DNA of 64,000 bases from a virus: the IMG/VR virus record IMGVR_UViG_3300010373_000005, positions 1 to 64,000 of that record; one strand, given 5' to 3'. Made by a program: the position numbers and the translations under genes. Under the pieces are notes generated by a model that saw nothing but the letters and a program-made list of their open reading frames with translations, was not told the origin of the DNA and did not search any database. Below, piece after piece: positions 9,008 to 64,000 of this stretch (the stretch's first letter is position 1; each line of letters begins with the position of its first letter).

Positions 9008-10423
9008 TCAGTGCGATCCGTGCCCGTTGGTAGCCTCTATCCCCGCGGATCCGGCCGGAACCTGCAGGCGACCCTCGCCGGGCGGGGCCTCCTCCTGCAC
9101 CGCCTGCCGCGGGTCAGGATTCCGCAGCGGGCCGCCCGAAGGATCGTACCTCCCGCGGTGCAGCGTCTGCTGCGTGGTGCGCGTCGGCAGCTCCAGGACG
9201 TCCCTGATGGCCGGCATGTCGAGCACGTCGGCCTCCTCTGCCTGACCTCCCTCGTTCCCGAGGTGAGCCATGTACACCTGCTTGAAGAACGCGCGCTTCT
9301 CGCTGCTGAGTGGGGCAGCCTTTATCTTCACCATCCCGACGTACTCTTCGCCGCAATTGGTCTCCAGCAGCGGGTCGACCCCCTGCGAGTTTACCTGCGA
9401 CACCACGTCCCTGTGCGCCATCTCCTGGTTGTCGATGGCGAAATCCGCGTGCTCTCCGGCCTCAGCCTTGGTTCCGAACTGCCCCTCCGTGACCGCGCGC
9501 TCAGGAATGCCGAACGCCCTGCACTTGAGCGAGTCGAGGTATCTGCCGCGCTCCACGAAGTTGGCCTGCGTGCTCGCTGCGGACACGAGCTGCACCGACC
9601 AGGTCACCTTGTCCTGGCCTATGGAATTCAGGTCCTCGATCTGCTTGGCCACCGTCAGCGGGATGGTGATCACGCCCGACGACTGCAGCGTGTGTCCGAG
9701 CGCGCTCGCGATCCTCGCGTTGTCGGTCTCGACACCGTTGAGCATCGTGGTGCCTACAGGGTACTGGATCACCCAGCTGGCGCCAGCCACCTTGTTATCG
9801 AACCTCCTGGCAGCGAGCTCAGACTCGTAGTGCCCGTCGTACGGCACCTCGGCGCGCTTCATCAACGGCTCGCCGTACCAGTTCGTGCCCTCCGCGTCGT
9901 GGTAGAGTACCAGCGACTCCCCTCGCCAGAGTCTCGTAGGCTCGTGGTACTGGTGCGACCAGTACGGGGTGTTCAGGAGTCCTAAGATCTCGCCGTGCTC
10001 GTTGACGACGATCTCGGTGATGTCGTGCAGCAGGGACTTCATCTTGGTGATCTGCAGCGTGCAGTCAGGCAGCTGCCTGCGCACCAGCTCGAACCCCGCC
10101 CAGCCGTAGTCCAGCAGGCCCCTGAACGCGTCTCTGAGGAACTTCTGCCTGTGCGGCAGGAAGGACTTCTTTACCATATCCACGGCACTCTTGTACCGCT
10201 CTTCCTCAGCCTCTACCGTCCACTCACTGGCCAGGGCAGGCGCCATGAAGATGTCGCGCAGGAACCCGATCGTCGGGTCCCTGCGCATGATGCGAGCCTT
10301 GCGGTACCAGACTGACCGGTCCAGCACCGTCGCCGCCAGGATCTTTGCGCCCGGCGGCAGGTAGGTGCTGATGCCCGAGACGCGTGTCGTCTGGGCAGCA
10401 GTCTTGCTCTGGTGAGTTGACAT
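9008..10423 (-). CDS. portal protein (candidate)
   Basis: 471 aa. The size, the position in the TerL operon and the acidic/aromatic composition fit a portal. No database check was possible. Confidence 0.6.
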   Translation of the reverse strand: MSTHQSKTAAQTTRVSGISTYLPPGAKILAATVLDRSVWYRKARIMRRDPTIGFLRDIFMAPALASEWTVEAEEERYKSAVDMVKKSFLPHRQKFLRDAFRGLLDYGWAGFELVRRQLPDCTLQITKMKSLLHDITEIVVNEHGEILGLLNTPYWSHQYHEPTRLWRGESLVLYHDAEGTNWYGEPLMKRAEVPYDGHYESELAARRFDNKVAGASWVIQYPVGTTMLNGVETDNARIASALGHTLQSSGVITIPLTVAKQIEDLNSIGQDKVTWSVQLVSAASTQANFVERGRYLDSLKCRAFGIPERAVTEGQFGTKAEAGEHADFAIDNQEMAHRDVVSQVNSQGVDPLLETNCGEEYVGMVKIKAAPLSSEKRAFFKQVYMAHLGNEGGQAEEADVLDMPAIRDVLELPTRTTQQTLHRGRYDPSGGPLRNPDPRQAVQEEAPPGEGRLQVPAGSAGIEATNGHGSH

Positions 10424-14122: not shown

Positions 14123-17100
14123 TCAGTTCGCGCTCGGCTGCGGAGTCTCCCTGGCAGGCGCCGACGACACCACGCGCCCACCCAGCTTCCTGACGAGCCT
14201 CATCCCGGCCTTCGTCATCTTCTTCGCGACGACGTACGTGCCCTGCGCGGCGAGCGTGGCGACGACGCCCATGCCGACGAGACCTGCCACCGCGGCAGCG
14301 GCTGCAGGCATCGACATGAACTGGATGGTCACCGCGCCGGCGAGGGCCGAGGCACCCATGTCCATCTCGTACGAGGCGCCCCTGCCTGCCCGGATCTTCC
14401 CGCACACCCTGCGCGCGGCCTTGACAGACCCGTAGCGCCTCTGGGCATCAGCAACGCACTTATTCCAAGGATACCTCTTCTTTTTCTTCGCGAGGCCTAC
14501 GGCGAGCTTGGGGTGCCTGCGCGAGACGACCTTGGGCTTCGGACCGTCGCACTCTGCGCCGCAGAACTCTGCAAAAGAATAGTACGCGTCGTGCGACCTG
14601 TCTCGCTCGGCCATCTGCTCCGCGACATTGCCGGTGGCCTGCACCTTGCCTCCGAGCTTGCTGAACACGCTCCTGAGCTTGCCCATCAGCGCGCTCGTCA
14701 CCCCGTAGACGACCAGCACCGTGCCGGCGCCCGCGGCTCCGACCGCGACGCCTGCCGCAGGCACCGCGAGGGTAGCAGTGAGCCCCAGGGCGATCAGCAT
14801 CCTCATGGCGGTGCGCGCGACGATGCCAGAGCCGAACTTCACGGCAACTGCCGTGCCGGCACCCTTAGCTATCGCGGTGCCCGCAGAGAACGACGCGGCG
14901 CGCCACTCCCCGTGGCTGTCTCGCGGGTGCTGGCTCTCGTTCCAGCCGCCGTGACCTCCGCCGGGGCGCGCGCCCGATCCGGGCGGCCTGCCGGGACCCC
15001 GCCTCACCTGGGGCCCCTCGCTGTCGTAGCGAGGTTCCACCGCGTGCTGCGGGACCCCGCGGGCCTCGTGCTCCCTGCGGGCGGTCTCCCGGGCCCTGTC
15101 CTGGTGGTAGTCCTGCGCATGGTCGTCCTCGATAACGCGGTTCACCTCGTTCGCGTGCGTGATCCTCGTGATCGGGCCCTTGGGCACCGGCGCGGGCTTG
15201 CCCTTGAACGCCCGGGCGAGGCCCTGCACGATCTTGTACGAGGCGTAGCTCGACACCCCGAACACGAGGATGGCGGTGCCGACGCCGGTCGCCACGCCCG
15301 CTGCGGCTAGTCCTGCGGTCAGTCCGAGCTGCAGCGCCCTCCGAACGACATGTCCCGCGACGCCCTTGGCGACCGAGATCGCGACCTTACCCCCGGAGAT
15401 CATGCCGAACTCGCACGCGTCGAAGTACTCCACGTCGTCGAACGACAGGTGTCGCCACTCTCCGTGCTCGTCCCTCGGGTGTCGCTCCTCCTCCCAGCGG
15501 ATCGCGTGCGCGCCGTGGTGCCTGGCGATGGCGTACACGTGCTGCGGAGGGTGGGCGTGCTGGACGTGAACCTCGTGCTCGCCCTCGTGGTCCCCCTTGG
15601 CGTGCACCATGGCCTTAAAGCCCTTGGACGCCAGGTGCTCGATCGCGGCGAGGGCCGCCACCTTGCCCGCGAAGTGCAGCACGGCCTTGCCGACGAACTT
15701 GGCGGCCGGCATGCTGATGCCGAACGCGTAGGACGCGCCCTTGCCCTTGGGCTTACTCTTCGTAGCCTGACGCGCAGCCTTACGAGCCTCCTTCGTCTTC
15801 TTGGCCCTGTCTGCGGGTGTCTCGGGCCGGAACCCGGGATGTGATTGGATCGCGTCCCACCCCGTGGGAGGCTTGGTCGCGTTTGCCGCCACGTCGTAGA
15901 TGTCGTGCAGCGGGTGCTGCGGACCCGTCTCCTGGTTTGTTCCCGGCCCGCTCGGCATGAGCTGCCGGGCGTTGCGAGCCTCGCGCGCTGCTACTCTTAC
16001 CTTACGCAATTGGCGCCCGTGGTAGTGCTGCACTATCGACTCGAAGACCTTCGCTAGTACTGCGGAGAGTCCCGCGGTCATGTGCCCGTACTGGTCGGTG
16101 TTCGCGTCGACGATACCCGCGTCCCTCGCGGCCTGCAGCGCCTTCTTGGCGACCACTGCTGAGCCGAAGTCGATGGCATACATCACCGCCGCGCCCTTGG
16201 CCGACACGTCCTTCTGCTGGTACTTGCTCTGGCTCTTGGGCGAGAACGACCCTGGCATCGGGATGATGGGTCCCGACGTCTTGTACATGATGGGGACGTG
16301 GTCTACGTGCTTCTTGTCCTTAGGATCGACCGCCTCCATGATCGTGTGGTGCACGATCTCGTTGGCCTGCTCGTGAGTCATGCCCGAGAGGATGAACCCG
16401 TTGCCGATCATTGTCGGCGTGATGCCGTGCTGGTTCCTGACTGCAGTGAATGCCGCCTTGGCCCACGTCGGATAGTTGAACATCACCTTGAAGTCATAGG
16501 TGGCATCAGCGCCGTTGAGGGCGAAGGCGTGGGACATCGCCTTCACCGGCGAGCCCCTGTACTTCAGGATGGCGTAGTTCACGGCCTTCATTGGGCCTCT
16601 GACGAGCATGCGTCGCTTCTTGTCCTGTCGCGCCACGGTGCACCCCTGGTTCTCGAGGAACTTCTGCGCGTCCTCGGCGTCCTCGAGCTGCTCGAAGTAG
16701 AGCCTCAGCTTGCGCTCGGATGGTTCCTGCCGCGTCCCGTGAGGCGGATTCCGCGACTGCGAGATCTCGGAGTGCGGCTGCTGCGGAGGTGCTTGAGGCT
16801 GAGTCGCGGTATCCATGCTCATGTCCCTACCTGTTGACCCCAAGAAACGAAGTGCGGCCCTGCGCACTGTTGCCTCGTCGTTCACCGCATCGCACTGTAC
16901 TGTCCATATGCCGTTCACCTTGCGATGCCAATCAAGGTCGCAGGGTGGAGACTCTTGCTTCAAGACCCATCTCACGAAAGCTTCCGCTGCCACTTGAGAA
17001 GGAAAGTGCAGCACCACTTTTCGCTCCACTCCGAACGAGTACCAGAAGTGCGACGAATCCTCCTTCTTGCGCTTGTCAAGACCTCGAGACACTCTGAACC

Positions 17101-18304
17101 CGTGACCCGCCGAAGTGTGTGGAGTCTCGTTCGGTCCGATAGAGTACCCCAGAGTTCGCAGGCGATTCATGATCGCGGACATCATACCTTTATTTCGTTG
17201 CTCTTCGGCTACCGCAATACGAATGGGCGTGAGGATCTTAGATCCAGGCTTCTGCCCGAACTCAGAATGGGCCATTGCCATTCTGTCTTCGTCATTAGGA
17301 TCCTCAATATATGCTATGAGCTTACCGGGCTCTTTCTGGATCTTAACATGCTTCTCCCACTCAGCTCCGTTGAGATTGGACTTGAAACTCATGCTCCATA
17401 GTCTTCGTACGTTCTTGCCGGGCCTGAACCTCACGATCGCCCGCTGGTGACTCAGCGTCTCGACGCCGTTCTGCGGGTTTGTAGTTATTTTAGGCTGTCG
17501 ATTGACAGCTTCAAATACTCCAAAATTGCGAAACTCCACGCGCTTGCCGTCGTTCAGGTGGTACACGATCATGTTAAGGACGTGATCCAGGGCCATTGCC
17601 GCGCGACCCTGCGTGATACCTGTGGCAGATGCCAGAGACTTCAGGACATCGTTCTTGGTGATAGTGTTGGACTTGAGGGCCATGCTGATAGACTTATCCT
17701 GCGCCATGTACGCGTGTCTCGCCGGATCGTCGTCAGGCCCGGGCCGCCCGGGCCTGTGAACTACGCACCGGTTCAGCTGCCTGAGCGTGGCGACCTTGCA
17801 CATAACGTGGTTGGCGTGTTGCTCTAGGCGCTTCACTATTCTGTGGCGCCCGTCCAGCACGTCGTCGTGAGGGCTCAGGATGATCGGCGTGTCCGGGTGC
17901 GCCCTGGCGACACGCTCCTCGCTGTAGCCTGTCTTAGGGTCCTTGTTGATCTTGTGCAGGAAGTCGCTCAGCGGGCGCTCGACCAGGGGGTTCTTCTCCG
18001 TCTCAAGCTTGAGACGGGCCACGTCGATGACAGGTACGACGCCCCTGCGTGCCTTCACCTTGTAGTGCGGCGGGACACCCACTGTCTCCGGCTCAGCGGA
18101 TGCCTCGCCCCCGCGGTGCCTGAGCTGCCTTACGCGGTACCTGTCGCCGTATGCCGCCGCGACAGCCCTCCGGGCCCGGCGTCGCCTGCGAGCCGCTCGC
18201 TCAGGGAGCTTCTTTCCCTTGGGTGTGTGCTTCTCCCAGCGGGCCGCCATCTCGGGATGAGTGGCGTGCATCCACCGGCGCTGCGCCTGACTGACCAGCG
18301 GCAT
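14123..18304 (-). CDS. polyvalent virion protein: ParB-like nuclease + HU/IHF + GNAT + three HPRD/Gly-zipper TM repeats
   Basis: Start at the ATG at 18304 (MPLVSQAQRRWMHA). DGRHR ParB/Srx motif at about 17780-18043. Full HU/IHF domain (FRNFGVFEAVNRQPKITTNPQNGVE) at about 17405-17683. GNAT Q/RxxGxG/A-like EEQRNKGMMSAIM at about 17120-17377. The C-terminus has 2x HPRD.HGEW and 3 Gly/Ala-rich TM segments. Confidence 0.8.
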   Translation of the reverse strand: MPLVSQAQRRWMHATHPEMAARWEKHTPKGKKLPERAARRRRRARRAVAAAYGDRYRVRQLRHRGGEASAEPETVGVPPHYKVKARRGVVPVIDVARLKLETEKNPLVERPLSDFLHKINKDPKTGYSEERVARAHPDTPIILSPHDDVLDGRHRIVKRLEQHANHVMCKVATLRQLNRCVVHRPGRPGPDDDPARHAYMAQDKSISMALKSNTITKNDVLKSLASATGITQGRAAMALDHVLNMIVYHLNDGKRVEFRNFGVFEAVNRQPKITTNPQNGVETLSHQRAIVRFRPGKNVRRLWSMSFKSNLNGAEWEKHVKIQKEPGKLIAYIEDPNDEDRMAMAHSEFGQKPGSKILTPIRIAVAEEQRNKGMMSAIMNRLRTLGYSIGPNETPHTSAGHGFRVSRGLDKRKKEDSSHFWYSFGVERKVVLHFPSQVAAEAFVRWVLKQESPPCDLDWHRKVNGIWTVQCDAVNDEATVRRAALRFLGSTGRDMSMDTATQPQAPPQQPHSEISQSRNPPHGTRQEPSERKLRLYFEQLEDAEDAQKFLENQGCTVARQDKKRRMLVRGPMKAVNYAILKYRGSPVKAMSHAFALNGADATYDFKVMFNYPTWAKAAFTAVRNQHGITPTMIGNGFILSGMTHEQANEIVHHTIMEAVDPKDKKHVDHVPIMYKTSGPIIPMPGSFSPKSQSKYQQKDVSAKGAAVMYAIDFGSAVVAKKALQAARDAGIVDANTDQYGHMTAGLSAVLAKVFESIVQHYHGRQLRKVRVAAREARNARQLMPSGPGTNQETGPQHPLHDIYDVAANATKPPTGWDAIQSHPGFRPETPADRAKKTKEARKAARQATKSKPKGKGASYAFGISMPAAKFVGKAVLHFAGKVAALAAIEHLASKGFKAMVHAKGDHEGEHEVHVQHAHPPQHVYAIARHHGAHAIRWEEERHPRDEHGEWRHLSFDDVEYFDACEFGMISGGKVAISVAKGVAGHVVRRALQLGLTAGLAAAGVATGVGTAILVFGVSSYASYKIVQGLARAFKGKPAPVPKGPITRITHANEVNRVIEDDHAQDYHQDRARETARREHEARGVPQHAVEPRYDSEGPQVRRGPGRPPGSGARPGGGHGGWNESQHPRDSHGEWRAASFSAGTAIAKGAGTAVAVKFGSGIVARTAMRMLIALGLTATLAVPAAGVAVGAAGAGTVLVVYGVTSALMGKLRSVFSKLGGKVQATGNVAEQMAERDRSHDAYYSFAEFCGAECDGPKPKVVSRRHPKLAVGLAKKKKRYPWNKCVADAQRRYGSVKAARRVCGKIRAGRGASYEMDMGASALAGAVTIQFMSMPAAAAAVAGLVGMGVVATLAAQGTYVVAKKMTKAGMRLVRKLGGRVVSSAPARETPQPSAN

Positions 18305-18305
18305 T

Positions 18306-18722
18306 CTACGCCCCCTGCTGGGCCGCGCAGGCCGCGAAGCACTCCTGGGCCGCGTCGGCGCTGCCGTCTCGCACGGCGTCGAGCGAGTGCAGGGCGAGCG
18401 CCTGGGCCTGGGCCCGGCCGTCCTTGCCGAGGTTGCGCACGTGCCTGTCACGTCGGAGCTGCTTCTTGGACTCGACCACCGCGGGTCCCAGCACGCTGTC
18501 GTCGTAGCTGCTGGTGTCCTCGTGGAAGGCAGCCTGCACGTGCTCCTGGGTCGTCTCGGCGGTAGCCTGAGCGGGAGCGCACTTCGAGAAGATCGACTGG
18601 AGCGCGGCAATCACCGCGCTCACCATGCCGAGGATCGTGAGTGGGTCGATGCCCGCGAGCTGGGGGTCAGCTGACGCGTTGCTCGCGGCTGCCTGACAGA
18701 TCTGAGTATCCTGCACGTTCAT
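18306..18722 (-). CDS. hypothetical protein
   Basis: The ATG at 18722 overlaps the stop of 18719..18916 (ATGA). 138 aa, MNVQDTQICQAAASNAS... The track ORF N-terminus is Arg-rich shadow sequence. Confidence 0.55.
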   Translation of the reverse strand: MNVQDTQICQAAASNASADPQLAGIDPLTILGMVSAVIAALQSIFSKCAPAQATAETTQEHVQAAFHEDTSSYDDSVLGPAVVESKKQLRRDRHVRNLGKDGRAQAQALALHSLDAVRDGSADAAQECFAACAAQQGA

Positions 18723-27810: not shown

Positions 27811-28752
27811 CTATTCCGGCGCGCACTCGTTCTGGAACGTCTTCCTGTACTGCCGCCAGCCGCGGAAGTTGCCGGACTGCTCCACAGACCCGTCGCTCCG
27901 GCGGCTGCTGGCAGGCATCGCCTGCGCCACGTGCTCCGTGGGAGCCCAGTGCCCGAAGCCTGAGCCCCTCCTGAGCTTGTCGGCCAGTTCCAAGTCCTTC
28001 CTCCAGTCACGCTTGCCATCGTGCGTGAGGTAGCTGACGCGGGCCACGCGGGCGGCGCTGATGGCGTTGAGCATCTCCGTCATGCCCTGTCCTGTGGCCA
28101 AGCCACTCCATGGCGCCCCAGCTCTGAATTTATTCACCAGCTCGTCGCAAGGGTCTTGCAGCGCGACTCGCAATTCGCGAGAAAGTTCCTCCTTGTCGTT
28201 CCCCGTCACGTACGGCCTGTGCCACTCGCCCTCCTTCCTGGGCGTCGGTACGCTCGCCTCCATCGCATCTCGCCACATGTAGGCTATCTTCTGTATGTGA
28301 GGCTCCGCGTCCGGGTGGCACCTCAGCCTGAAGAAGTTCTGCCAGTCTGTAGCAGTCACGATCACGGTTATCCACATCCACGGCTCGACGAGACGATTAC
28401 ATAGGCTCTTATGTAATCCACTCTTAGCAAGCGCCCTAGCTTGTGACACCGCCATGTCCCGCGCCGCCAGCCACTCGCACTGGCAGATCACCCTGTCGGG
28501 AGCTTCCAGCTCCGCGCCCTGCTGCATCCCCCTCGCCTCTGAGCCCCACCTGATCGGGATCACCGGGTCGTCCAGTACCGCCGCGAGCATCTTCGCCAGC
28601 GGGATCGCCCGGCTCGACGCTGAGCTCCTGCTCAGCGCCCTGTGCGTCAGCAGCTCGCTGTGGACGAACCTGGGATAGGTGAGGACTCCCGTAGTCAATC
28701 TGACTCCTGTGGGCCCTATGCTGTCCAGCAATACCTCAGCCTTGTACGCCAT
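27811..28752 (-). CDS. thyX: FAD-dependent thymidylate synthase ThyX
   Basis: ThyX signature RHRxxSxxxxSxR read as LTHRALSRSSASSRAIP. Also FFRLRCHPDAEPHIQKIA. The ATG at 28752 overlaps the upstream stop by 1 nt. Confidence 0.8.
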   Translation of the reverse strand: MAYKAEVLLDSIGPTGVRLTTGVLTYPRFVHSELLTHRALSRSSASSRAIPLAKMLAAVLDDPVIPIRWGSEARGMQQGAELEAPDRVICQCEWLAARDMAVSQARALAKSGLHKSLCNRLVEPWMWITVIVTATDWQNFFRLRCHPDAEPHIQKIAYMWRDAMEASVPTPRKEGEWHRPYVTGNDKEELSRELRVALQDPCDELVNKFRAGAPWSGLATGQGMTEMLNAISAARVARVSYLTHDGKRDWRKDLELADKLRRGSGFGHWAPTEHVAQAMPASSRRSDGSVEQSGNFRGWRQYRKTFQNECAPE

Positions 28753-29000
28753 CACTCGCTCCTCCTGTAGTAGAGAAAAGTATGCCTCGACACCTCGTAG
28801 AACCACCCTCCCGCGTCCCTGAACCAGCCCTCGAACGGCGGCTGGTCCTCTCCCCCGCCGAACGCGTAGTGCACCTCGACGACTTCGCCGGACTCCAGCA
28901 TCACGTCGTAGTGCACCACGCGGGTGTCCCTGCCCTCAGGCATGGCCTCCGCGAACCACCAGTGGTCGGGACCGCACGGAGATGTGTCGCTCCAGGGCAT
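28752..29000 (-). CDS. hypothetical protein
   Basis: 82 aa with an ATG start. Trp-rich. Confidence 0.55.
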   Translation of the reverse strand: MPWSDTSPCGPDHWWFAEAMPEGRDTRVVHYDVMLESGEVVEVHYAFGGGEDQPPFEGWFRDAGGWFYEVSRHTFLYYRRSE

Positions 29001-34892: not shown

Positions 34893-36947
34893 TCAGCCTT
34901 CCTGGCTGTCAGTTCCCTTGGAGTCTCCGCCCAGCAGCTTGCCGAGGATGCTTCTCAGGTCGCCGATGTCGTTGGCCATGCGGCGCTTGTCGATGACTCG
35001 CTCCCTGACCTCCTGGTCGATGGTCCCCATGATGATGAGGTCGGTGCATCTCACCGGGCGCCTGGTGCCTCGCCGGTGGGCCCTGTCCTCCGCCTGGGAC
35101 CTCAGCACTGACGACCAGCCCTGGCTGAAGAAGATCACGCGGGTCACGTCTGTGGGGATCGACTCGTCGCCGGGCGGGTGGCCGATGAGGTTAAGGCCGG
35201 TGCCGCCCGCGGCTGGGTTGCCGAGGAAGACGCGACACTGAGGGTCATTATTAAATGACCACTCAGCGGCGCGTCTGTCATCGTCGCCCGTGTTCCCCGT
35301 GAACACCACGTGCCCGATGGATTCTTGCGACAATCTCTCGGAGATCGTCGCGATGTCCTCCATGAAGCATGCCCACACGATCATCTTCTCGTCCTCGCCG
35401 AGCGGCTCGATCAGGTCGTCGTCGTCCTCGAACCCCTTGATCTGCTGGACGAGCGCCTCCACCTTCGGGTTGGGCGTGATCCGCTGTATCGTCTTGGGCA
35501 CCACCATCTCGCCGGTGTCGAGGTCCACGATCGGGTCGAAGCTGACGAAGCCTGACGTGATCTGCGCTAGGCGCAGGAGCTTCACGAGGATATTGTTGGC
35601 GTTAACTGTCTTGGTCTGGTCCGCCATGTCGTCCTCGATCTCGATCAGTAGCTTGTTCTTCATCATCTGGTAGAACTGCCGCTGCTCGGTTGTCATCTCC
35701 ACGTCGACGAAGTCGTAGGTCTTCTTCGGCAGGTCGGGCAACGCCTCTGCCTTCGTGACGATGAACGACATGCGTGCTAACCTGTCTCTCAGGAACGGCA
35801 AGTTCTGGACGTCGACCATCCGCCGCCCACCGTCCGCCGAGATCTGGAACACGCCGTAGAAGTTCTTGAAAGCCTCGAAGTTGCTGAACCCCGAGCCGCC
35901 CTCGCGCATGAACTCGAACAGTGAGTACAGGTCGACCGGCGTGTTACACACTGGCGTGCCGGTCAGCACGCGTCTCCTCTCGGAGACGTCGCGCAGCTTG
36001 AAGGCGAACCTGGCCCGCTTCGTCTTGGGCCACTTGATGAAGTGTCCCTCGTCCAGACCTGCCAGGTGCCACTTGATGATGGACAGGTACTGCCACATGT
36101 TGCTGAGTAATTCATATGACGAGATGAACGTGGTGTAGCGCTGGCCGGGCCGCGCCTGGATGCCCTCCAGCAATAATCTGACGCGCTCCCCCTCCCATCC
36201 CTCGAGGACGATCACCCTGCCGTCGACCTGCGAGAACCGCTGGATCTCCGACGCCCAGTTGTGCCTCACGTTCTTCGGGGCGATCAGCAGTGACTTGAAC
36301 AGCTGCTGCTTCTTGGGCAGGTGGGAGCGGTCCTTCGAGGCCTCTCGGTCGATCTCCTCGACGACGCACAAGGTCTTCCCGGTGCCTGGCACCATGAAGT
36401 ACCCGTAGCCGTCTGCACGCCTGGAGTTCATGGTGGCGACGACCTGGTGGAGCATCATGGGATTCTCGCCCATAGTGAGCCTCGGGACGTCGCAGTACTC
36501 GAAGCCGTCGCCGAGAGCTTCCAACTCGTCCTGGAGGGAGAGGTCACCTTCGGTGATCCTCTTCCTCAGGTCGTTCCGTCTCTCGCAGTACTCGTGGTAC
36601 TTCGCCGCGCGCTCCATGTCCTTACGCTGCTGCTCCATGGTCTTCGACCAGTAGTCGAGGGCGATCCTCGCCTCGTCACTCGCCTCGAGTTGACTCGCGG
36701 GCCACAGTCCCGTGATCACCATCACGACGGCGTCAGTCACCGGTACGTGGTAGTGATTACCGAGCGAGCCGATCTCCTTCTTCTGCGGCAGCCGCTTGAC
36801 GATCGCCTTCGCAGCTCCCGACACGTTCCACGCGGGGTCTCGGTAACTGAGTAAGAGATCGAAGTCCTTACCGTCGTCCGTCAGTTTGAGGCTCATCCTG
36901 TCTGTCGCCGGTATCCTCGGGGCGTTCTCCAGTACCTTGTCGATCAT
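34893..36947 (-). CDS. SNF2/RAD54-family helicase
   Basis: Motif I VPGTGKT. Motif II LDEGHFIK. Motif III LTGTPVCNTPVDLYSLFEF. Helicase C GNPAAGGTGLNL. Motif VI QAEDRAHRRG. Confidence 0.9.
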   Translation of the reverse strand: MIDKVLENAPRIPATDRMSLKLTDDGKDFDLLLSYRDPAWNVSGAAKAIVKRLPQKKEIGSLGNHYHVPVTDAVVMVITGLWPASQLEASDEARIALDYWSKTMEQQRKDMERAAKYHEYCERRNDLRKRITEGDLSLQDELEALGDGFEYCDVPRLTMGENPMMLHQVVATMNSRRADGYGYFMVPGTGKTLCVVEEIDREASKDRSHLPKKQQLFKSLLIAPKNVRHNWASEIQRFSQVDGRVIVLEGWEGERVRLLLEGIQARPGQRYTTFISSYELLSNMWQYLSIIKWHLAGLDEGHFIKWPKTKRARFAFKLRDVSERRRVLTGTPVCNTPVDLYSLFEFMREGGSGFSNFEAFKNFYGVFQISADGGRRMVDVQNLPFLRDRLARMSFIVTKAEALPDLPKKTYDFVDVEMTTEQRQFYQMMKNKLLIEIEDDMADQTKTVNANNILVKLLRLAQITSGFVSFDPIVDLDTGEMVVPKTIQRITPNPKVEALVQQIKGFEDDDDLIEPLGEDEKMIVWACFMEDIATISERLSQESIGHVVFTGNTGDDDRRAAEWSFNNDPQCRVFLGNPAAGGTGLNLIGHPPGDESIPTDVTRVIFFSQGWSSVLRSQAEDRAHRRGTRRPVRCTDLIIMGTIDQEVRERVIDKRRMANDIGDLRSILGKLLGGDSKGTDSQEG

Positions 36948-52393: not shown

Positions 52394-52612
52394 CTAACAT
52401 GTCGGGTCTTCTCCTTCGTTAGTGACATTCTCGTCTGGTACCACGTCGCACGACGACGGGTCCACCCACCTCCACTTCCCGGCCGCGTCCTTGAAGTGAC
52501 CGCGACCGTCCTTGGACACGAACTGCACGCGCACCTTGGTGGGCCTGACGGCCCGATCCTCTATCTGCGTGGCCACGTACCACGTGCGCTCACTTAGCAT
52601 CAGTACAGGCAT
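52394..52612 (-). CDS. small hypothetical protein
   Basis: 72 aa. Overlaps the 3' end of the ThyA-like gene by 23 nt. Confidence 0.45.
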   Translation of the reverse strand: MPVLMLSERTWYVATQIEDRAVRPTKVRVQFVSKDGRGHFKDAAGKWRWVDPSSCDVVPDENVTNEGEDPTC

Positions 52613-53576
52613 TGCTTCTCCTCTGCATCAGGGGTGACCGTGGCGACCACTCCAGCGCGGGCCTGAGCTTGTTGCAGCACGCCCTGAGCAGGTCGGTCCC
52701 CATGCCGCCGAGCGCCTGCGCGCGAGCCTCGACCTCGAGCGGGTTGCCACCGTGGCGCAGGAGTGACTCCAGCTCGACCGCAAGCTTGACCGAGTCGAGC
52801 GTGTCGTCGAGCTGCCAGCCGTGTGGGACCTCTGTTGAGGTTCCGCTCGCCAGGGCCTCCCGAGCTCTCGTCTCGTTCCGCGCGTACAGGTGCATGCTGC
52901 CGACCTGGTGGTGGTACTCTCCCACCTGGAGGCCAAGCTCGCAGGCCACGACCCGCTGCAGGCACGTAAAGGCAAACACGTCGTACGGGAACCCGAGCCA
53001 CGCGTCGTTCGAGCGCATGGTCGTGACGATGTGGAGTGCCCCGTCGCGGGCCAAGAACTGCAGGCCGAGCGTACACGGCACGTCCGCGCACCCGCCTGAC
53101 TCAGCGACTGACAAGTCGTGTGGGTCCCAGAACTGGAGCACAGCCTGCCTGGAGAGCGAGGACTTCCTGAGCATGTCGACGATCCGCTCGAGCGCGGGTC
53201 GGTCGTCAGGCACCTGCGACGTGCCACTGAAGTCAGTGGTCACGTCCCAGGCCGCGAACATCCGCGGGCCGTACGCGCCGTACGCCGTGCCGTCCTGCCT
53301 GCGGTACTTGACATAGCTGGGGGCGTATTTCTCGATCATCTCCGTGCTGCCCTCGCCCGACATGTACCAGAGGAACTCTGCCGCCGCGTACGACGGCGAG
53401 AGGTTCCTGACATCGTTCGTGAGGAACGTCCGCTGCTTGCTGGCGTCCAGCACGCCCTTGTACCCGACGACCTCACCGCACACTGGGCCGTCACGAGAGT
53501 CTCTATTATTTGCGCAGTTCAGGAGCACGAACAGTAGGTGCTCCCACATGTTGTCGATGCTGTCGTAGATGCTCAT
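52590..53576 (-). CDS. ThyA-family pyrimidine C5 methylase/hydroxymethylase, predicted cytosine-specific
   Basis: The ATG at 53576 overlaps the upstream stop. Catalytic DVPCTLGLQF (Cys168), then RSNDAWLGFPYDVFAF and HLY. Asp199 (GAC at 52982..52980) sits where ThyA has the Asn of PFN. Confidence 0.75.
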   Translation of the reverse strand: MSIYDSIDNMWEHLLFVLLNCANNRDSRDGPVCGEVVGYKGVLDASKQRTFLTNDVRNLSPSYAAAEFLWYMSGEGSTEMIEKYAPSYVKYRRQDGTAYGAYGPRMFAAWDVTTDFSGTSQVPDDRPALERIVDMLRKSSLSRQAVLQFWDPHDLSVAESGGCADVPCTLGLQFLARDGALHIVTTMRSNDAWLGFPYDVFAFTCLQRVVACELGLQVGEYHHQVGSMHLYARNETRAREALASGTSTEVPHGWQLDDTLDSVKLAVELESLLRHGGNPLEVEARAQALGGMGTDLLRACCNKLRPALEWSPRSPLMQRRSNACTDAK

Positions 53577-54850
53577 GCTATCTCCTTCCACTTCCTGATG
53601 AGCCGGCCCGTCTTCGGGTCGACGTTGAACCTATGACACTGCTCCTGGCACTCTGCCGGGAACCTACCGATGTCGAAGTCTCGCGGGTAGTACTGCGTGA
53701 CGTCGATAACCTTCTCGTCCTGACCAGACGTGTCCTCGCCCTCGAACACACCGCGTACGTGATCGTACCGGGTGGACCAGTCCTCGGTAGGCCCACCCCA
53801 CTCGTCCTCCAGGCACTTCCTGCACATCTCCGCGATCCAGGTGGCCACGTCCGGCACGACGCCCTTGGCGATCTGGCTGAACGGGTCTGGCCCTACCGGT
53901 ATCTCGCCCCTCCATCCCATGATGTCGGCCAGCTCGCCGACCGTGCAGGGCCGGTGCCACCACGGGTGGAGCAGCCTGCAGCAGGAGTTGGTGAGCGTCG
54001 GGGCCGCGCACATCCACGCCGGTCGGTGCACCCCGTGCATGCTGAACGGCATGTCTGACATCCGCTCGTCCCACTTCGCCTTGAAGGCCGGTGACAGCTT
54101 TTCGTAGTCGTACTGCGCCAGCGTGTTGGCGTCCCACCCGCTGGCCATGTGCGGCAGCGAGTGCCACTCGTCCGCGGTCAGTTGCAGGTACGAGTCCTGA
54201 TCGTACCCCCCGTCCCTGATCATCGGCAGCGGGTCGACGACATTGCACTCCCGGTGTCGCCTCTCGGAGATCGCGTCCCACAGCATCGGAGCGTGCTCCA
54301 GCATCGGCGGCAGGTCGACGTTGAACTGCCTGTCTCTGGGGTAGGCCACCTGGAAGTACCGCTTGCGATTCTGCGCGTTACCGAAAGTCCGGGCGTTCAC
54401 GAACACGTGCGCGACCCGGTAGCCGTTCTCGATGAATCTTCTAGTAAAAGAATCCACGAGGGGCTTCCCTGTGCGGTAGGCCTGCTGGACAGACTCCCAC
54501 ACGATGAGCGAGAACTCGTAGGCCAGCCCGTAGTCGACCAGCTCCTTGACGTCCTGGCACTGCCTCGCCTCGGGGCCGTGACCGGTAGAGGACAACCCCG
54601 CCGTCACGTTCGAGAACGCGGTACATCTTGGATTGCCGTAGAGCACGTCGATCCTGCCGTGACCCAGTGCCACTGGCGCGGGCCACGCGCAGGCTCCATC
54701 AGCCGGTCGGATCACTGGCACCTTCCAGACCTTCTCCACTGTGTCGTCGCCCAGCCCGTGCACCTCCAGCTGGGCCTTCACGTCGAACACGTCCTTGAAA
54801 CCTGCGGTCATCCCGCCGGCGAACACGTGGCATCCTAGTGCCTTGATCAT
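53573..54850 (-). CDS. C5 cytosine methyltransferase-fold protein
   Basis: Motif I CHVFAGGMTAGF. Motif IV GNPRCTAFS (P-R-C instead of P-C). Motif VI VWESV. Motif VIII QNRKRYF. Motif IX RPCTVGELADIMGW. Motif X IAKGVVPDVA. Confidence 0.7.
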   Translation of the reverse strand: MIKALGCHVFAGGMTAGFKDVFDVKAQLEVHGLGDDTVEKVWKVPVIRPADGACAWPAPVALGHGRIDVLYGNPRCTAFSNVTAGLSSTGHGPEARQCQDVKELVDYGLAYEFSLIVWESVQQAYRTGKPLVDSFTRRFIENGYRVAHVFVNARTFGNAQNRKRYFQVAYPRDRQFNVDLPPMLEHAPMLWDAISERRHRECNVVDPLPMIRDGGYDQDSYLQLTADEWHSLPHMASGWDANTLAQYDYEKLSPAFKAKWDERMSDMPFSMHGVHRPAWMCAAPTLTNSCCRLLHPWWHRPCTVGELADIMGWRGEIPVGPDPFSQIAKGVVPDVATWIAEMCRKCLEDEWGGPTEDWSTRYDHVRGVFEGEDTSGQDEKVIDVTQYYPRDFDIGRFPAECQEQCHRFNVDPKTGRLIRKWKEIA

Positions 54851-55479
54851 GCCAGTCTCACTCCCCGGCAGTGCGACCTGCCGTGCTCGTCGAACTGCCT
54901 GAGGGCCCTGTGCAGTGACTCACCGCACAGCGCGCACTCGTCTGTGGACCTGAAGTCATGAGGACTCAACTGAAATTGACGATAGTCTGTCAGCACTCGC
55001 AAAAAGTTCGCAGGAATGTAATTGGGTCCTTTGCGACGCACACGAGCTTTTGAAGGATCATCTTCTTGTTTGGTCTTCGTCATGTTCGACTCGTGAGCTT
55101 CTACGAAGCCCTCGGCGAGCGGCAGGTCGAGCGTCACGGCCGTGCCCTTGATGACGTACAGGGCGTCGGCCAGGGCGTCGAGCGTCTCCACCTCGTCTCG
55201 CTCGGAGAGAGCCATCAATAGCTCCTCGATCTCCTCGACGACGAGCTGGGCACGGGCCACGCGCTCGTCGTCGCTATGCTCAACCAGCATGCGCTCGAAC
55301 TTGTCGGCCAGGCCCTTCAGGCTCAGCGCCGACTGGTACAGCTGCTCGTCCACCACCTCCTTGAGCCTCGGGTCGGACAGCCTCTGGGTCGGACACACCT
55401 GTAGCTTCGTGTGGAAGCCCTTCACGCAGGCCATGGCGCTGTTGATACCGGTTACTATCTCGTTTCTGAGCTCCCTCAC
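54847..55479 (-). CDS. MazG-like all-alpha NTP pyrophosphohydrolase
   Basis: VVEEIEELLMAL....ETLDALADALYVIKG.......FVEAHESNMTK is the MazG/HisE-type metal-binding pattern. The GTG start overlaps the upstream stop. Confidence 0.7.
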   Translation of the reverse strand: MRELRNEIVTGINSAMACVKGFHTKLQVCPTQRLSDPRLKEVVDEQLYQSALSLKGLADKFERMLVEHSDDERVARAQLVVEEIEELLMALSERDEVETLDALADALYVIKGTAVTLDLPLAEGFVEAHESNMTKTKQEDDPSKARVRRKGPNYIPANFLRVLTDYRQFQLSPHDFRSTDECALCGESLHRALRQFDEHGRSHCRGVRLA

Positions 55480-60766: not shown

Positions 60767-60802
60767 GAAGACCTCCGAATGATAGGTCTATTATAACAAG
60801 TG

Positions 60803-61708
60803 CTAGGACAGTTGTACACCATCTTCACGTCTTTTTTGAAAATATTCCTGAACTTTCCGCCTGAAGGCCTCCGGCGCTGTCAGCGACCACTTGAGCAGGC
60901 CCTGCTCGTCGTTCTCGACGTGCTCGCGCGGGCTGAAGCCAGGAAGCATGAGCCTGCGCCCGCGAGTGTCTCTGTCCTGAAGAGATCCGTGGTGCATGTG
61001 TACGATCGAGCCCATGACGAACCCGAATGACAGCAACTCGCCGTTCGCCCAGCGGCGCACGTCGTTCTGCACCGTGCTGCCTACCTCCGACGTCCGGAAC
61101 GGGTCGACGCCCGTGAAGGCCCTGAGCATCAGGGTGTCACCGTTGCCTGTGACGGCCCGGTCGTACAGCCTGAAGCCACGCCTGAGGTGACTCGCGCGCA
61201 TCGCCCAGGCCATGCCGGGGTGACTCTGCGCGAAGTCGCACCACATCTTGGCGTACGTCGACCAGTGCCAGCCCGTGGACTTCACGGGCGTCGTGATCCT
61301 CTCGTCAGAGTCCGTCAGTGACGCGTCGCTGAACATCTGCACGACGTCGTATCGTTCCAGCTCCCTGAGCGTGTCGGCCTCCCACCTCGGATTGACGAAG
61401 ATCACGTCCGCGTCGACCCACGCGACGGCCGTGACCTCCGGGTCTCGCAGTGCCTTCGCGAAGCCAACGTTGAGCAATGCCTCCTTCTGCCACATCCAGT
61501 TCTCGGCTCGGGTGCCACGGAGCGTCGTCCAGGCGTGCAGGCCTCGGCTGATGACGTCATTGTCATTGACACTGACGTCATCGTCGAGGACTAGTTCCAC
61601 TATGTGTACCGGCCTGTCGATGACGTGCAGGAACCTCTTCAAGTTCTCGACGGGTCGCCGGTACTGGCACGGGTTGAAGTGACACGCTACCACAGCTAGC
61701 TTCGGCAT
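60803..61708 (-). CDS. nucleotide-diphospho-sugar transferase-like (GT-A fold) protein
   Basis: 301 aa. LAVVACHFNPCQYRRP and AWVDADVIF (DxD-type) patterns. Family assignment is tentative. Confidence 0.5.
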   Translation of the reverse strand: MPKLAVVACHFNPCQYRRPVENLKRFLHVIDRPVHIVELVLDDDVSVNDNDVISRGLHAWTTLRGTRAENWMWQKEALLNVGFAKALRDPEVTAVAWVDADVIFVNPRWEADTLRELERYDVVQMFSDASLTDSDERITTPVKSTGWHWSTYAKMWCDFAQSHPGMAWAMRASHLRRGFRLYDRAVTGNGDTLMLRAFTGVDPFRTSEVGSTVQNDVRRWANGELLSFGFVMGSIVHMHHGSLQDRDTRGRRLMLPGFSPREHVENDEQGLLKWSLTAPEAFRRKVQEYFQKRREDGVQLS

Positions 61709-62340
61709 CGCGCCTCCTGCCAGGAGAGCTTCTCAGGAGAAGTCTCCTCGCCGGGGAGCGACACGAACTTGGCACGTGGGCGCTGGCACTCGTGCGGCAC
61801 TGCCTCCCAGAAGTACACGGCCAGCGACTTCCTGAGCACGCCCGGAGGGCACGGGATGGGTCGTGGCACACCGTGGTAGGAGAAGTCGTTCGTCTGGAAC
61901 GCGACCAGCCTGTTACGCCTGGGCAGCACGCTGGCCTGCTTCTTGCCCTCCCAGAACTCGAGCCCACCGCCCCACTCTGCCGACCACTCGCCGACGAAGA
62001 GCACGAGGTTGAGGGCCCGCCTGAAGCCGGTCCTCGGGTGCACGTCGCAGTCGAGATGCAGGTCGAGCACCCCGCCCGACGGCATCGCGTGCATGCCACC
62101 GCCGTGCAGCGTCTCGTCTGTGGTCAGTCCCGCGGGGCAAAGAAGCTGCAGCTGGGCAAGAAGGGAAGCACATACGGGTGGTACTGCCTTATTAGCCGCG
62201 AGCTTTCGCTCGCCAGGGCTGTCGTACTTGACCCACCCCTCCCAAGACTCGTCCGGAAATTCCTCCGAAGCTTGAGCGACCAGTCCGGCATCGAGCGCCC
62301 CGTCGTAGACATCCCAATAGAAGTCATCGCCTCCCGCCAT
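61696..62340 (-). CDS. 2OG-Fe(II) oxygenase (prolyl-4-hydroxylase-like)
   Basis: ATG at 62340. HxD in VLDLHLDCD, distal His in FSYHGV, and WGGGLEFW...RLVAFQ jelly-roll strands. Confidence 0.7.
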   Translation of the reverse strand: MAGGDDFYWDVYDGALDAGLVAQASEEFPDESWEGWVKYDSPGERKLAANKAVPPVCASLLAQLQLLCPAGLTTDETLHGGGMHAMPSGGVLDLHLDCDVHPRTGFRRALNLVLFVGEWSAEWGGGLEFWEGKKQASVLPRRNRLVAFQTNDFSYHGVPRPIPCPPGVLRKSLAVYFWEAVPHECQRPRAKFVSLPGEETSPEKLSWQEARCRS

Positions 62341-63053
62341 GACTCGAAGAGGGGCCAGACCCGCTCCCTCCAGTATGGCAGGTCGTACGGGTTGCGGTCC
62401 CCCTGCTCGAACAGGCATGCCGTCTCCTTCCTCGTGAAGTGCCTCGAGGGCCATATCTCTACTCCATGTGAGTTCTGATCAATTTCCTCCCAGTCTCGCG
62501 ACCGGACTGCCTCGTTGTCGAACCAGAAGAACGTGCCCGAGTAGTGCCACGGCACCACCTGCTGCACCCCGCTGAAGTAGCACTGCGGGCGTCGGAAACA
62601 CCCGGCCATGTGGTGCTCTTCCATGGCCGCGTCTAGTAATTTAGGCCAGTCCAGGCACACGTGCGTCATGACGTCGACCCACAGCCTGACAGACTCGTAG
62701 CACGCCTGCTGGTGCGTGTGCGTGACTCCCTTCGCGTGACAGTAGAAAGTCCTGCCCGGCTGGTCGACTACGGCGCGCACCAGCGGACGCCACGTCACCA
62801 CCTCCCTGAGCTGCGGGTCGTTGTCGTAGATCTCTATCTCCGCGTCGGGAGGAAGCTCGTCTGCCACCTCCTGCGGGTCGGCCGTCTCGACCGTTATGTC
62901 TTCGGTGACAACCACGGGCTCGGCAGACGTGACCACTGCGACGACCTTCTTCCCGTCGAACTGGTCCCAGCGCTCCGCCAGCATGCGCAGCAGGCGCTGC
63001 CACTCGGAGCTGGTCTTCACCGGCCAGACGTGAACCAGGAGATGACTCTTCAC
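62124..63053 (-). CDS. hypothetical protein of the modification cluster
   Basis: The GTG at 63053 overlaps the MTase stop (GTGA). HLLVHVWPV, FYCHAKGVTH and YSGTFFWF motifs. The last 72 or so codons run out of frame into the oxygenase gene. Confidence 0.5.
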   Translation of the reverse strand: MKSHLLVHVWPVKTSSEWQRLLRMLAERWDQFDGKKVVAVVTSAEPVVVTEDITVETADPQEVADELPPDAEIEIYDNDPQLREVVTWRPLVRAVVDQPGRTFYCHAKGVTHTHQQACYESVRLWVDVMTHVCLDWPKLLDAAMEEHHMAGCFRRPQCYFSGVQQVVPWHYSGTFFWFDNEAVRSRDWEEIDQNSHGVEIWPSRHFTRKETACLFEQGDRNPYDLPYWRERVWPLFESWREAMTSIGMSTTGRSMPDWSLKLRRNFRTSLGRGGSSTTALASESSRLIRQYHPYVLPFLPSCSFFAPRD

Positions 63054-63577
63054 AGGCTGCACTCCTCCACCCGGAGGTGGAACCTGTTCTCGTGCCTCGT
63101 CCTGGGAAGCCACGTCATTATGTCGAGGTCACTCCACTGCCTGAACAGCGGGTTGGCACGCGCCATAGGGAACCAGTAGTCGTCGCAGCCTGGCTCGATG
63201 CGCTCGATGCGCAGCCTGCGCGGGTATCCCCCGAAGAAGATCTGCGGGAATACGTCGCTCATGTGACGAAAGAAGTTGATCGACACGACGCCCTCGTGGC
63301 CGATCACCATGGCCATCTCGCTGGTCGCGTCTGGGCACCGGATCTCGACGGTAGCTCCTACCTTGCAGACGCGGGCCACCTCGCGCAGGAACGTGATAGG
63401 GCACCTGACGTGCTCGATGCAGTGGCTGGAGTACAGCTGGTCGACGGACGCGTCCTCGAACGGCCACGGGGTGTCGTTAAGGTCGTGCACCATGTCGGCG
63501 CACGCCAGCATGTCTACGTTCACGAAGCCCTCGCCCCTGGGCCTGTCACCGCCGCCTATCTCGATCTTGAGTGTCAA
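63050..63577 (-). CDS. class I SAM-dependent methyltransferase
   Basis: TTG start with an AGGAGG RBS 6 nt upstream. LKIEIGGGDRPRGEGFVNVD (motif I) and VDQLYSSHCIEHV. Confidence 0.7.
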   Translation of the reverse strand: MTLKIEIGGGDRPRGEGFVNVDMLACADMVHDLNDTPWPFEDASVDQLYSSHCIEHVRCPITFLREVARVCKVGATVEIRCPDATSEMAMVIGHEGVVSINFFRHMSDVFPQIFFGGYPRRLRIERIEPGCDDYWFPMARANPLFRQWSDLDIMTWLPRTRHENRFHLRVEECSL

Positions 63578-63605
63578 CGCTCACCTCCTGTATATGCTTG
63601 ATCCA

Positions 63606-64000
63606 TCACGGAAACTCCCGATGCCTGGGGCCTTCGACATCCCCTGCCACTATTGCTAATGCTTTATTGAATTCATGAAGACGACAGCAGTGCTGACACT
63701 CCGGTATGACGTCGACGCCGTTCCTGACCATGTCGCACCGGCGCTCTCCGAGCCATATCTCGTCGAACCTCTCGTCGTGCAGGTTACCGAACGTGAAGGC
63801 CTCCTGACCTCGGTGGTACGCGCACACGGATACACTACCATCATGCCAGACAAACGGAATAATCCTATGACCATGACATTTAGGATACTCGTGAGGCTTG
63901 AGATAGTCCTTCCACTTATAAGAAGTAGACTCGATCTCGACTCCGCAATTCACGTACTCCTCCAGCCATGTCGGGAATGTCACTGGCTGCTGCAGCGCGA
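63606..64000 (-). CDS. radical-SAM-type protein, C-terminal (SPASM/twitch-like) part, 5' end outside window
   Basis: The frame stays open to the window edge upstream of the GTG at 63983. Cys-rich C-terminus: CHGH...VCAYH...CDM...ECQHCC. Confidence 0.4.
   Translation of the reverse strand, partial: ALQQPVTFPTWLEEYVNCGVEIESTSYKWKDYLKPHEYPKCHGHRIIPFVWHDGSVSVCAYHRGQEAFTFGNLHDERFDEIWLGERRCDMVRNGVDVIPECQHCCRLHEFNKALAIVAGDVEGPRHREFP

Follow-up and report, generated by a model that had tools for sequence, protein, structure and literature searches.

The gene cluster described here occupies positions 60803-64000, on the minus strand, of the window, the 64,000-nt stretch (positions 1 to 64,000) of IMG/VR virus record IMGVR_UViG_3300010373_000005 that was analysed. 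With moderate confidence, the cluster is interpreted as a late, cytoplasmic glycan-building cassette that lies at the end of the tail-gene block and modifies a tail protein. The acceptor would be a virion tail protein as judged by synteny, coupling of adjacent genes, an adaptor domain that co-varies with the upstream tail gene, and association with extracellular contractile injection system (eCIS) loci. Recognisable enzyme folds, intact catalytic motifs, a coupled gene order and recurrent linkage to tail or tail-like genes characterise the cluster.

As the preliminary description had anticipated, the cluster runs on past position 64000. A 78-kb ENA contig (L001), located by exact-protein look-up, extends the window and carries further cluster genes upstream. 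In the direction of transcription, L001 encodes the tape measure, tail proteins of 260 and 602 aa, and a 248-aa protein with 19 Cys residues. These are followed by a small Cys-rich DUF6171-like open reading frame (ORF) that had not been called, a paralogue (252 aa) of an enzyme designated GTL, a GT2 glycosyltransferase (PF00535, 2e-10), a radical S-adenosylmethionine (SAM)/SPASM protein, a methyltransferase, GTL, a 2-oxoglutarate (2OG)-Fe(II) oxygenase and a GT-A enzyme designated GT301. Pam3_gp32-like, primase-helicase, MazG-like, C5-methylase-like, ThyA-like, HNH and PolA genes lie downstream. The cassette comprises eight ORFs on L001 (seven enzyme genes and the small Cys-rich ORF) and includes up to four proteins with a glycosyltransferase (GT) fold; the five genes in the window are its 3' two-thirds.

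Over 11.5 kb of scanned sequence, the sense strand has a single sigma-70-like site, which lies just past the GT301 stop codon (Table 1) and precedes the Pam3_gp32-like and replication genes, and consensus matching over the same 11.5 kb found no sense-strand promoter-like site within the cluster. Because the only promoter-like site follows the GT301 stop codon, the cluster looks like the tail end of a structural operon. In the order and chemistry proposed here, the cassette genes would be transcribed together with the late tail genes, and the GT-fold enzymes would pass host nucleotide sugars stepwise to the acceptor, most probably a tail or receptor-binding protein that is distal and rich in Cys. 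The radical-SAM enzyme may tailor a sugar, the methyltransferase may cap a sugar by O-methylation, and the oxygenase may hydroxylate either an acceptor residue or a sugar.

Linkage of GTL to tail and tail-like genes

Loci were gathered from IMG/VR (80) and GTDB (41), and 127 GTL loci were scanned with our own profiles, co-occurrence being counted from naive ORF calls within 10 kb on either side of each locus. The partners found were the oxygenase (38 loci), the methyltransferase (22), GT2 (10), the radical-SAM enzyme (7) and GT301 (7). In the unrelated siphophage contigs L006, L007/8 and L009, the start of GTL overlaps the stop codon of the last tail gene, and a small methyltransferase and a PF13640 oxygenase come next, with no ThyA or MazG gene nearby. 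In about 40 phage contigs of diverse kinds, the last tail gene is Cys-rich and GTL comes directly after it, the stop codon of the one often overlapping the start codon of the other. The product of the gene immediately upstream of GTL has a Cys content of at least 5% in 36 of 82 loci, as compared with 4.9% of background ORFs (odds ratio 15, p=8e-23, uncorrected for phylogeny). Among 41 unique pairs, the Cys-rich gene and GTL are separated by a gap within +/-20 nt in 23, and overlap by 4 nt in 8.

The Cys-rich tail proteins, flagged here as the likely partners of GTL, are 165-730 aa long with 6-10% Cys and a core that has no Pfam or PHROG family; they were found in L012, L017, L027, L032, L060, L076, L085, L092, L098, L116, L132 and others. 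Several sequence subfamilies share CC doublets, CCCxGC, YCCSCVP and a terminal GGIGCCG...TITE, and one of the proteins bears a Laminin_G_3 lectin insert. In the best-defined subfamily, 28 alignment columns, mostly Cys, are invariant, and the motifs are CCCxGC, YCCSCVP, CxCxCICxC, NPCPSP and GGIGCCG...TITE. A reciprocal DNA-pattern scan for GGIGCCG identified, among the matches listed, at least three further loci (L211, L230 and L253) with GTL directly downstream, and a fourth in which other GT-like genes, a methyltransferase gene and a radical-SAM/SPASM gene are found in place of GTL. Two simplifying proposals were discarded. A single family for all of the Cys-rich upstream proteins was rejected, as the profile recognises 13-16 loci only, and the 248-aa protein of L001 could not be identified as the detached C-terminus of the 1007-aa tail protein of the related contig L002, as C-terminal similarity was not significant; the 602-aa (L001) and 1007-aa (L002) tail proteins are similar only at the N-terminus (E 2e-4).

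GTL itself can carry an N-terminal extension of ~180 aa that is frequently Cys-rich. The extension is present in 26 of 41 cases with a Cys-rich tail gene upstream versus 3 of 68 without one (p=1.4e-11). A DUF6171-like region is fused to the N-terminus of the enzyme in most GTL homologues. In L001, a separate DUF6171-like, Cys-rich peptide (CACEKPGYC...GLGDIVAIAITIITL...PGCRCGSRKAWLN) with one hydrophobic stretch is encoded at 5306-5803 on the plus strand, between the genes for the 248-aa protein and the GTL paralogue. A literature search on DUF6171 found no papers.

The GTL family also occurs in T4-like, jumbo and polymerase-encoding phages. T4-like cyanophages carry peptide deformylase and Fe-S assembly genes, and GTL is accompanied by an NAD-epimerase and a GT2 in AT-rich loci that include such genes. 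Long Gly-Ser or Ser-Ala dipeptide repeats, resembling O-glycosylated serine-rich repeats, were observed in some tail proteins adjoining GT genes (L009 8025-10004, L011/L013 8722-9669, L093 8616-9596 and L132 5128-8142). As general glycosylation sites these repeats were dismissed, since a strict count places them in only 2 of 41 Cys-rich proteins.

Beyond phages, a multidomain GTL protein (Glyco_trans_1_2, GTL and Methyltransf_24) ends 12 eCIS loci, of which 11 come from assemblies of bacterial genomes and one is on an IMG/VR contig (L025). The same three conserved genes precede it, encoding in order a 628-aa protein, an AAA ATPase and a protein with an eCIS_core domain. The terminal protein is 1,000-1,500 aa in length and consists of an N-terminal VVCGCG...GVNDVG domain, Glyco_trans_1_2, sometimes a ConA-like domain, GTL and Methyltransf_24. 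Baseplate_J and Tail_P2_I genes were found further upstream in Aquabacterium commune DSM 11901 (L095/L349, NZ_SNXW01000002.1), the sole locus extended upstream; it is of the contractile-tail eCIS type, and 11 loci are similar to it.

A more general possibility is put forward tentatively, namely an undescribed, widespread system common to tailed phages and eCIS. GTL, recruited by a Cys-rich zinc-ribbon-like adaptor domain, would glycosylate the receptor-binding tail protein, which is distal and rich in Cys, with Cys or a hydroxylated residue as the possible attachment site, and tailoring by the methyltransferase, 2OG oxygenase and radical-SAM enzyme would come next, such that the host-recognition apparatus would be decorated with glycan. 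If tail-tip or receptor-binding proteins are indeed glycosylated by a recurrent cassette, then the recognition of hosts, the stability of particles and their recognition by immune or defence systems may hinge on a modification that is invisible to annotation. This would bear on the prediction of host range, the engineering of phage and eCIS delivery particles, and the interpretation of cryo-EM density.

Remodelling of a host surface glycan, which the preliminary description had raised as an alternative, is disfavoured by these linkages. In that case, soluble enzymes would alter lipopolysaccharide, capsule or a teichoic-acid-like polymer on the cytoplasmic face, which could block superinfection or prevent cell debris from trapping progeny. 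Cargo genes are typically found just after tail-fibre genes, and the combinations of GT and methyltransferase and the variable GT content are reminiscent of O-antigen loci. The fold matches of GT301 include TarP, a wall-teichoic-acid glycosyltransferase encoded by a prophage, and a serine recombinase in L006 indicates that some carriers are temperate. However, the overlaps with the stop codon of the last tail gene, together with the lack of an internal promoter-like site, favour late co-expression over expression from a prophage, and the family extends to T4-like, jumbo and polymerase-encoding phages and to the end of eCIS loci. The co-variation of the N-terminal adaptor domain of GTL with the Cys-rich tail gene also argues against an acceptor on the host surface. 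Moreover, no membrane segment was predicted in any of the seven enzymes (Kyte-Doolittle, 19-residue window, maximum <1.5 for all), and no flippase, polymerase or GtrA/B/C-like partner was detected using Pfam. TarP and the Gtr systems are similar in that phage-borne GT-A enzymes are encoded near tail or attachment regions, but Gtr needs membrane proteins and TarP is expressed from a prophage, whereas the window enzymes are soluble and their genes are coupled to late tail genes. Gtr-type membrane components (flippase, polyprenyl-phosphate GT and membrane GT) were not found among the cassette proteins by Pfam or hydropathy. Host-glycan remodelling is thus regarded as unlikely, and modification of a tail protein is preferred.

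Enzymes of the cluster

The 309-aa product was previously said to match nothing recognisable. Its motifs, HAKGVTH and YSGTFFWF, do exist and are invariant in the GTL family, but a structure search places the protein in a GT-A-like fold. GTL has no match in Pfam, PHROG or NCBIfam, a PDB sequence search gave nothing significant, and tblastn against 50,697 phage records returned zero matches. The AlphaFold2 (AF2) model (predicted local distance difference test score (pLDDT) 94.8) was compared with the PDB using Foldseek, and the matches were nearly all nucleotide-diphospho-sugar-transferase folds (E down to 6e-5, template modelling (TM) score 0.4-0.47), including IspD, GlmU, DPMS, GtrB, GpgS and GlcAT. 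In a viral library, the best matches (TM 0.6-0.7) were phage proteins that are uncharacterised and domains within multidomain proteins of giant viruses, some of the latter being annotated as glycosyltransferases. Residues N78, E84, H106, K108, S172, G173 and E199 are invariant. A canonical DxD is not present in GTL, the equivalent position being N78-D-P-x-L-R-E84. As modelled, GTL has the fold of the nucleotide-diphospho-sugar-transferase superfamily, and it belongs to no described CAZy or Pfam family. An exhaustive profile search yielded at least 2,283 representative clusters, and this analysis hence defines a large enzyme family without a Pfam, PHROGs or NCBIfam model. GTL is fused to Methyltransf_11 in L040, and to Glyco_trans_1_2 and Methyltransf_24 in bacterial proteins.

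GT301 likewise has nothing in Pfam, PHROGs or NCBIfam and no significant match in a PDB sequence search. Its AF2 model (pLDDT 87.6) gave 286 Foldseek matches in the PDB at E<=1e-3, the listed ones being GT-A glycosyltransferases, including 6p61 (2e-8), K4CP, the GT domain of LH3, GalNAc-T2, b4GalT1, SpsA and TarP. The conserved motifs are WQKEALLN, WVDADV (DxD), HPGFAWA, GxGD and HxxHG..DR; across 14 homologues W97-V98-D99-A100, H237, H240 and G241 are invariant, and D101 is nearly so. On the basis of the model, GT301 is a GT-A-fold glycosyltransferase, and one homologue (P0036) carries a fused GT2 domain. A tblastn search of the 50,697 phage records found one match, a hypothetical protein of Xanthomonas jumbo phage XaC1 with an uninformative neighbourhood. 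IMG/VR contains 383 relatives of GT301, and the neighbourhoods of 85 loci were analysed. A tail-fibre gene is located ~1.3 kb upstream in 44 of these, with HNH and terminase genes downstream, and the tail-fibre proteins are of a type with N-terminal 'IKIKRGT...LAAGELAF'.

The oxygenase, the methyltransferase and the radical-SAM enzyme all retain their catalytic signatures across homologues. The oxygenase matches PF13640 (E 6e-12, 46.8 bits, cut-off 27), and the iron triad (H95, D97 and H156) and the 2OG-binding Arg (R170) are invariant in 35 of 35 homologues. At E<=1, only PF13640 and PF13661 were matched in Pfam, with no match to an AlkB or TET/JBP model, and a PDB sequence search gave nothing significant. 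The oxygenase appears dispensable, as it is not in the relative L002 or in about 70% of GTL loci. The methyltransferase matches PF08241 (7.5e-7, 30.1 bits, cut-off 21.2) and phrog_6636 'methyltransferase' (1.8e-9); motif I (G8-G9-G10) and other residues are invariant in 23 homologues, a PDB sequence search found nothing significant, and in L040 it is this enzyme type that is fused to GTL. The window methyltransferase and that encoded at 11116-11640 of L006 are, by eye, about three-quarters identical, though the phages are unrelated, whereas the GTL proteins beside them are only about 30% identical. Because the methyltransferases are far more alike than the adjacent GTL proteins, this suggests that the methyltransferase is under strong constraint or was recently exchanged.

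The SPASM fragment in the window matches PF13186 (1e-8). The full radical-SAM protein (319 aa, L001 7144-8103) includes C37xxxC41xxC44 and the conserved residues C230, C248, C290 and C294. On large phage contigs, relatives with 50-62% identity have as neighbours an NAD-epimerase/dehydratase, a cytidylyltransferase and a GT-like gene. The best-known role of SPASM enzymes is in peptide maturation, the best PDB sequence matches of the radical-SAM enzyme are SkfB (0.028) and CteB (0.14), and a Cys-rich protein is encoded upstream. The cassette might therefore act on another acceptor, either by cross-linking a Cys-rich protein in the manner of a ribosomally synthesised and post-translationally modified peptide (RiPP), with glycosylation being secondary, or by modifying some other cytoplasmic protein of the host or phage, or it might make a free or carrier-bound glycoconjugate. 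Proteins with an eCIS_core domain are often regarded as effectors, and it is such a protein that GTL follows in eCIS loci. However, the SkfB and CteB matches are weak and not significant, the homologues adjoin nucleotide-sugar genes and not precursor peptides, and the radical-SAM gene is found in only 7 of the 127 GTL loci. These readings are therefore considered very improbable.

For the tail-protein cassette preferred here, the earlier view that the genes build a decorated sugar is upheld by the number of GT-fold proteins, by the radical-SAM relatives encoded beside nucleotide-sugar genes and by the fusions of GTL to methyltransferase domains of the sugar type. The closest known kind of system is virus-encoded virion glycosylation. 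In mycobacteriophages Che8, Corndog and Myrna, virions are glycosylated by phage-encoded glycosyltransferases. There, as in the cassette proposed here, soluble phage GTs, sometimes with methyltransferases, draw on the nucleotide sugars of the host and act in the cytoplasm on structural proteins that have yet to be assembled. The reported targets differ, being capsid and tail-tube proteins, the GT genes are not attached to a tail-tip gene, and we know of no report of an oxygenase or radical-SAM partner in these systems. Phages of mycobacteriophage cluster F are annotated with virion glycosylation by phage glycosyltransferases (e.g. PMC11256854). Neither GTL nor GT301 matched a mycobacteriophage in the tblastn search of the 50,697 phage records.

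Giant viruses likewise encode GT-A domains, a sugar O-methyltransferase and a prolyl 4-hydroxylase (P4H)-like 2OG oxygenase. Examples are the chlorovirus A064R-type GT-GT-methyltransferase, the PBCV-1 prolyl 4-hydroxylase and the mimivirus L230 hydroxylase-glycosyltransferase, which are involved in capsid or fibril glycosylation. Klosneuvirus and CroV proteins annotated as glycosyltransferases are structural matches of GTL (TM 0.54-0.64), but the similarity is at the level of fold only (about 14-20% identity), and these are viruses of eukaryotes whose acceptors are the major capsid protein and collagen-like fibrils. A P4H-superfamily 2OG oxygenase is also paired with GT-A enzymes in the Skp1 P4H1/Gnt1 and collagen LH3 (lysyl hydroxylase) systems, in which proteins are first hydroxylated and then glycosylated, and the LH3 GT domain was matched by fold to both GTL and GT301. 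In contrast, no collagen-like or Skp1-like acceptor is evident in the window phage, and the cassette oxygenase is dispensable.

Cytosine modification and its relationship to the cluster

The cluster had also been proposed to elaborate a modified cytosine, and a check for co-occurrence with the ThyA-like/MazG core had been recommended. This assignment to DNA hypermodification, tempting as it is, was not supported and is corrected here. Only 3 of the 127 GTL loci, all three from the window lineage, have ThyA-like, MazG and Dcm genes within 10 kb, and only 4 of the 85 GT301 loci have ThyA and MazG at that distance, which leaves 124 and about 80 loci, respectively, against such a role. Conversely, the primase-helicase/MazG/ThyA core occurs without the cluster in the related phages L257, L259 and L261, for which 3.8-6.8 kb was retrieved upstream. 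Their ThyA-like genes are 31-41% identical to that of the window phage, and L261 has a SNF2 helicase at the corresponding position, upstream of the gp32-like gene.

Modification of cytosine in the window phage is nonetheless plausible. The ThyA-like protein is far closer to the CMP 5-hydroxymethylase MilA (3e-31) than to thymidylate synthases (2e-18) and, in our reading of the alignment, has Asp (FPYD) where ThyA has the Asn that specifies uracil. Hence, a C5-modified cytosine (5-hydroxymethyl- or 5-methyl-cytosine) is plausible in the DNA of this phage, as far as sequence can indicate. Were the cluster to act on DNA, MazG and the MilA-like hydroxymethylase would give 5-hydroxymethyl-dC, to which the cluster GTs would add sugar for the other enzymes to tailor. 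The MazG and C5-methylase-like genes flank the ThyA-like gene, one GT301 homologue gene overlaps a deoxynucleoside monophosphate kinase gene, and GT301 has stayed next to the replication genes in all of the lineage members observed (window/L001, L002, L015, L266, L268, L269 and L309). Late DNA modifiers located after tail genes also exist, such as mom of phage Mu.

However, GTL is also found at the end of eCIS loci, whose particles contain no packaged DNA. The oxygenase resembles P4H and matched neither AlkB nor TET/JBP models in Pfam. The T-even phages are among the phage records searched by tblastn with the cluster proteins, and that search gave only the single hypothetical protein of a jumbo phage. 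An RGP-like GT gene and a GT-B-like gene (Table 1) lie among ThyX, SET, HNH and SNF2 genes in a DNA-metabolism region (30-33 kb), a location that suits an action on DNA better than does that of the tail-linked cluster. In the window phage, the hydroxymethylase and the cluster are ~7 kb apart, unlike in Shewanella phage Thanatos, where candidate GT genes TH1_060 and TH1_063 flank the hydroxymethylase gene TH1_062 (PMC12838424). The window phage does possess the upstream half of a T-even or Thanatos pathway, a dCTPase-like MazG and a homologue of the cytosine-type C5 hydroxymethylase, but the cluster is neither adjacent to nor co-inherited with the hydroxymethylase genes, and T-even phages and Thanatos use one or two GTs, as compared with the four GT-fold proteins and tailoring enzymes of the cassette. 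A role in DNA hypermodification is accordingly judged quite improbable.

The lineage relatives L002, L015, L266, L268, L269 and L309 have a GT/methyltransferase/radical-SAM cluster between the tail and replication genes in which components are swapped. That of L002 includes a GT2+MT24+DUF6171 fusion and no oxygenase, and that of L266 includes GT9 and MT21. The exchange of GT and methyltransferase types at the same position is a pattern typical of glycan loci.

Several points weigh against a tail-protein glycosylation cassette. Synteny alone designates the acceptor, the region downstream of tail fibres is the classic site for cargo (moron) genes, and the co-occurrence statistics ignore phylogeny. 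The Cys-rich upstream proteins are not one family detectable by hidden Markov model, the best-defined subfamily covering 13-16 loci; its profile does not recognise the 248-aa protein of the window phage, and the lineage relatives L015 and L266 have no Cys-rich protein upstream. The PDB fold matches of GTL are weak (TM 0.4-0.47) and, because it has no canonical DxD, GTL could be a nucleotidyltransferase and not a glycosyltransferase. Finally, the probable C5-modified cytosine in the window phage leaves room for a role in DNA modification.

Gene boundaries and other features of the window

The five minus-strand ORFs described previously are present at the same coordinates (Table 1), and the enzyme classes given to them are borne out by Pfam matches, predicted folds and catalytic motifs. 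A megablast search of 55.7-64 kb of the window against GenBank phages found no match.

Table 1. Coordinates of the cluster genes and of other features in the window.
Feature	Position	Strand	Basis or remark
GT-A-fold glycosyltransferase GT301, 301 aa	60803-61708	-	AF2 model, Foldseek, motifs
2OG-Fe(II) oxygenase, prolyl-4-hydroxylase-like superfamily, 214 aa	61696-62340	-	PF13640, HxD...H...R
GTL, nucleotide-diphospho-sugar-transferase-fold enzyme (predicted), 309-aa ORF	62124-63053	-	AF2 model, Foldseek
Small class I SAM-dependent methyltransferase, 175 aa	63050-63577	-	PF08241; TTG start, AGGAGG upstream
Radical-SAM enzyme, C-terminal 131 codons (SPASM-type auxiliary Fe-S domain)	63606-64000	-	PF13186
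Putative sigma-70-like promoter, TGTACA-17-TATAAT, extended -10	60790-60818	-	10/12 consensus match only
MazG-like (PRA-PH), C5 DNA-methylase-like (425 aa) and ThyA-like genes	52590-55479	-	Translationally coupled trio
SNF2-family helicase	34893-36947	-	
GT-B-like protein, 456 aa	31976-33346	-	Weak Glyco_trans_1_4 match
RGP-family (GT75-like) protein, 379 aa	30371-31510	-	PF03214, 3.2e-10
SET-domain protein, 133 aa	29712-30113	-	PF00856, 2e-5; unusual for a phage
ThyX-type thymidylate synthase	27811-28806	-	PF02511
1,495-aa ORF with embedded HU/IHF-type DNA-binding domain	14123-18610	-	PF00216, 3.5e-17
Mu-type portal gene	9008-10423		PF06074; near the 1,495-aa ORF

With respect to the junctions, the GTGA overlap reported between the methyltransferase and the 309-aa ORF was found, whereas the oxygenase/GT-A junction is a 13-nt overlap (ATGCCGAAGCTAG) and not an ATGA overlap. 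The radical-SAM stop codon and the methyltransferase TTG start are separated by a gap of 28 nt that includes the AGGAGG motif. Homologues of the 309-aa protein stop at about residue 245, and the last ~65 codons of the ORF (62124-62318) are hence considered an unsupported read-through. The conserved core of GTL is at 62318-63053, and the non-conserved 3' ~200 nt overlaps the oxygenase gene. As judged by comparison of N-termini with homologues in L006, L007 and L009, the oxygenase start is most likely the ATG at 62340. A start at 62454, which gives the longest ORF, does not fit the N-termini of the homologues, nor does the 132-aa version of the gene caller.

Inteins were also observed in the wider set of loci. 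They interrupt PolA in the relative L002 (19728-20876), and Hint and Intein_splicing domains occur within some radical-SAM/SPASM homologues (proteins P0223 and P0232).

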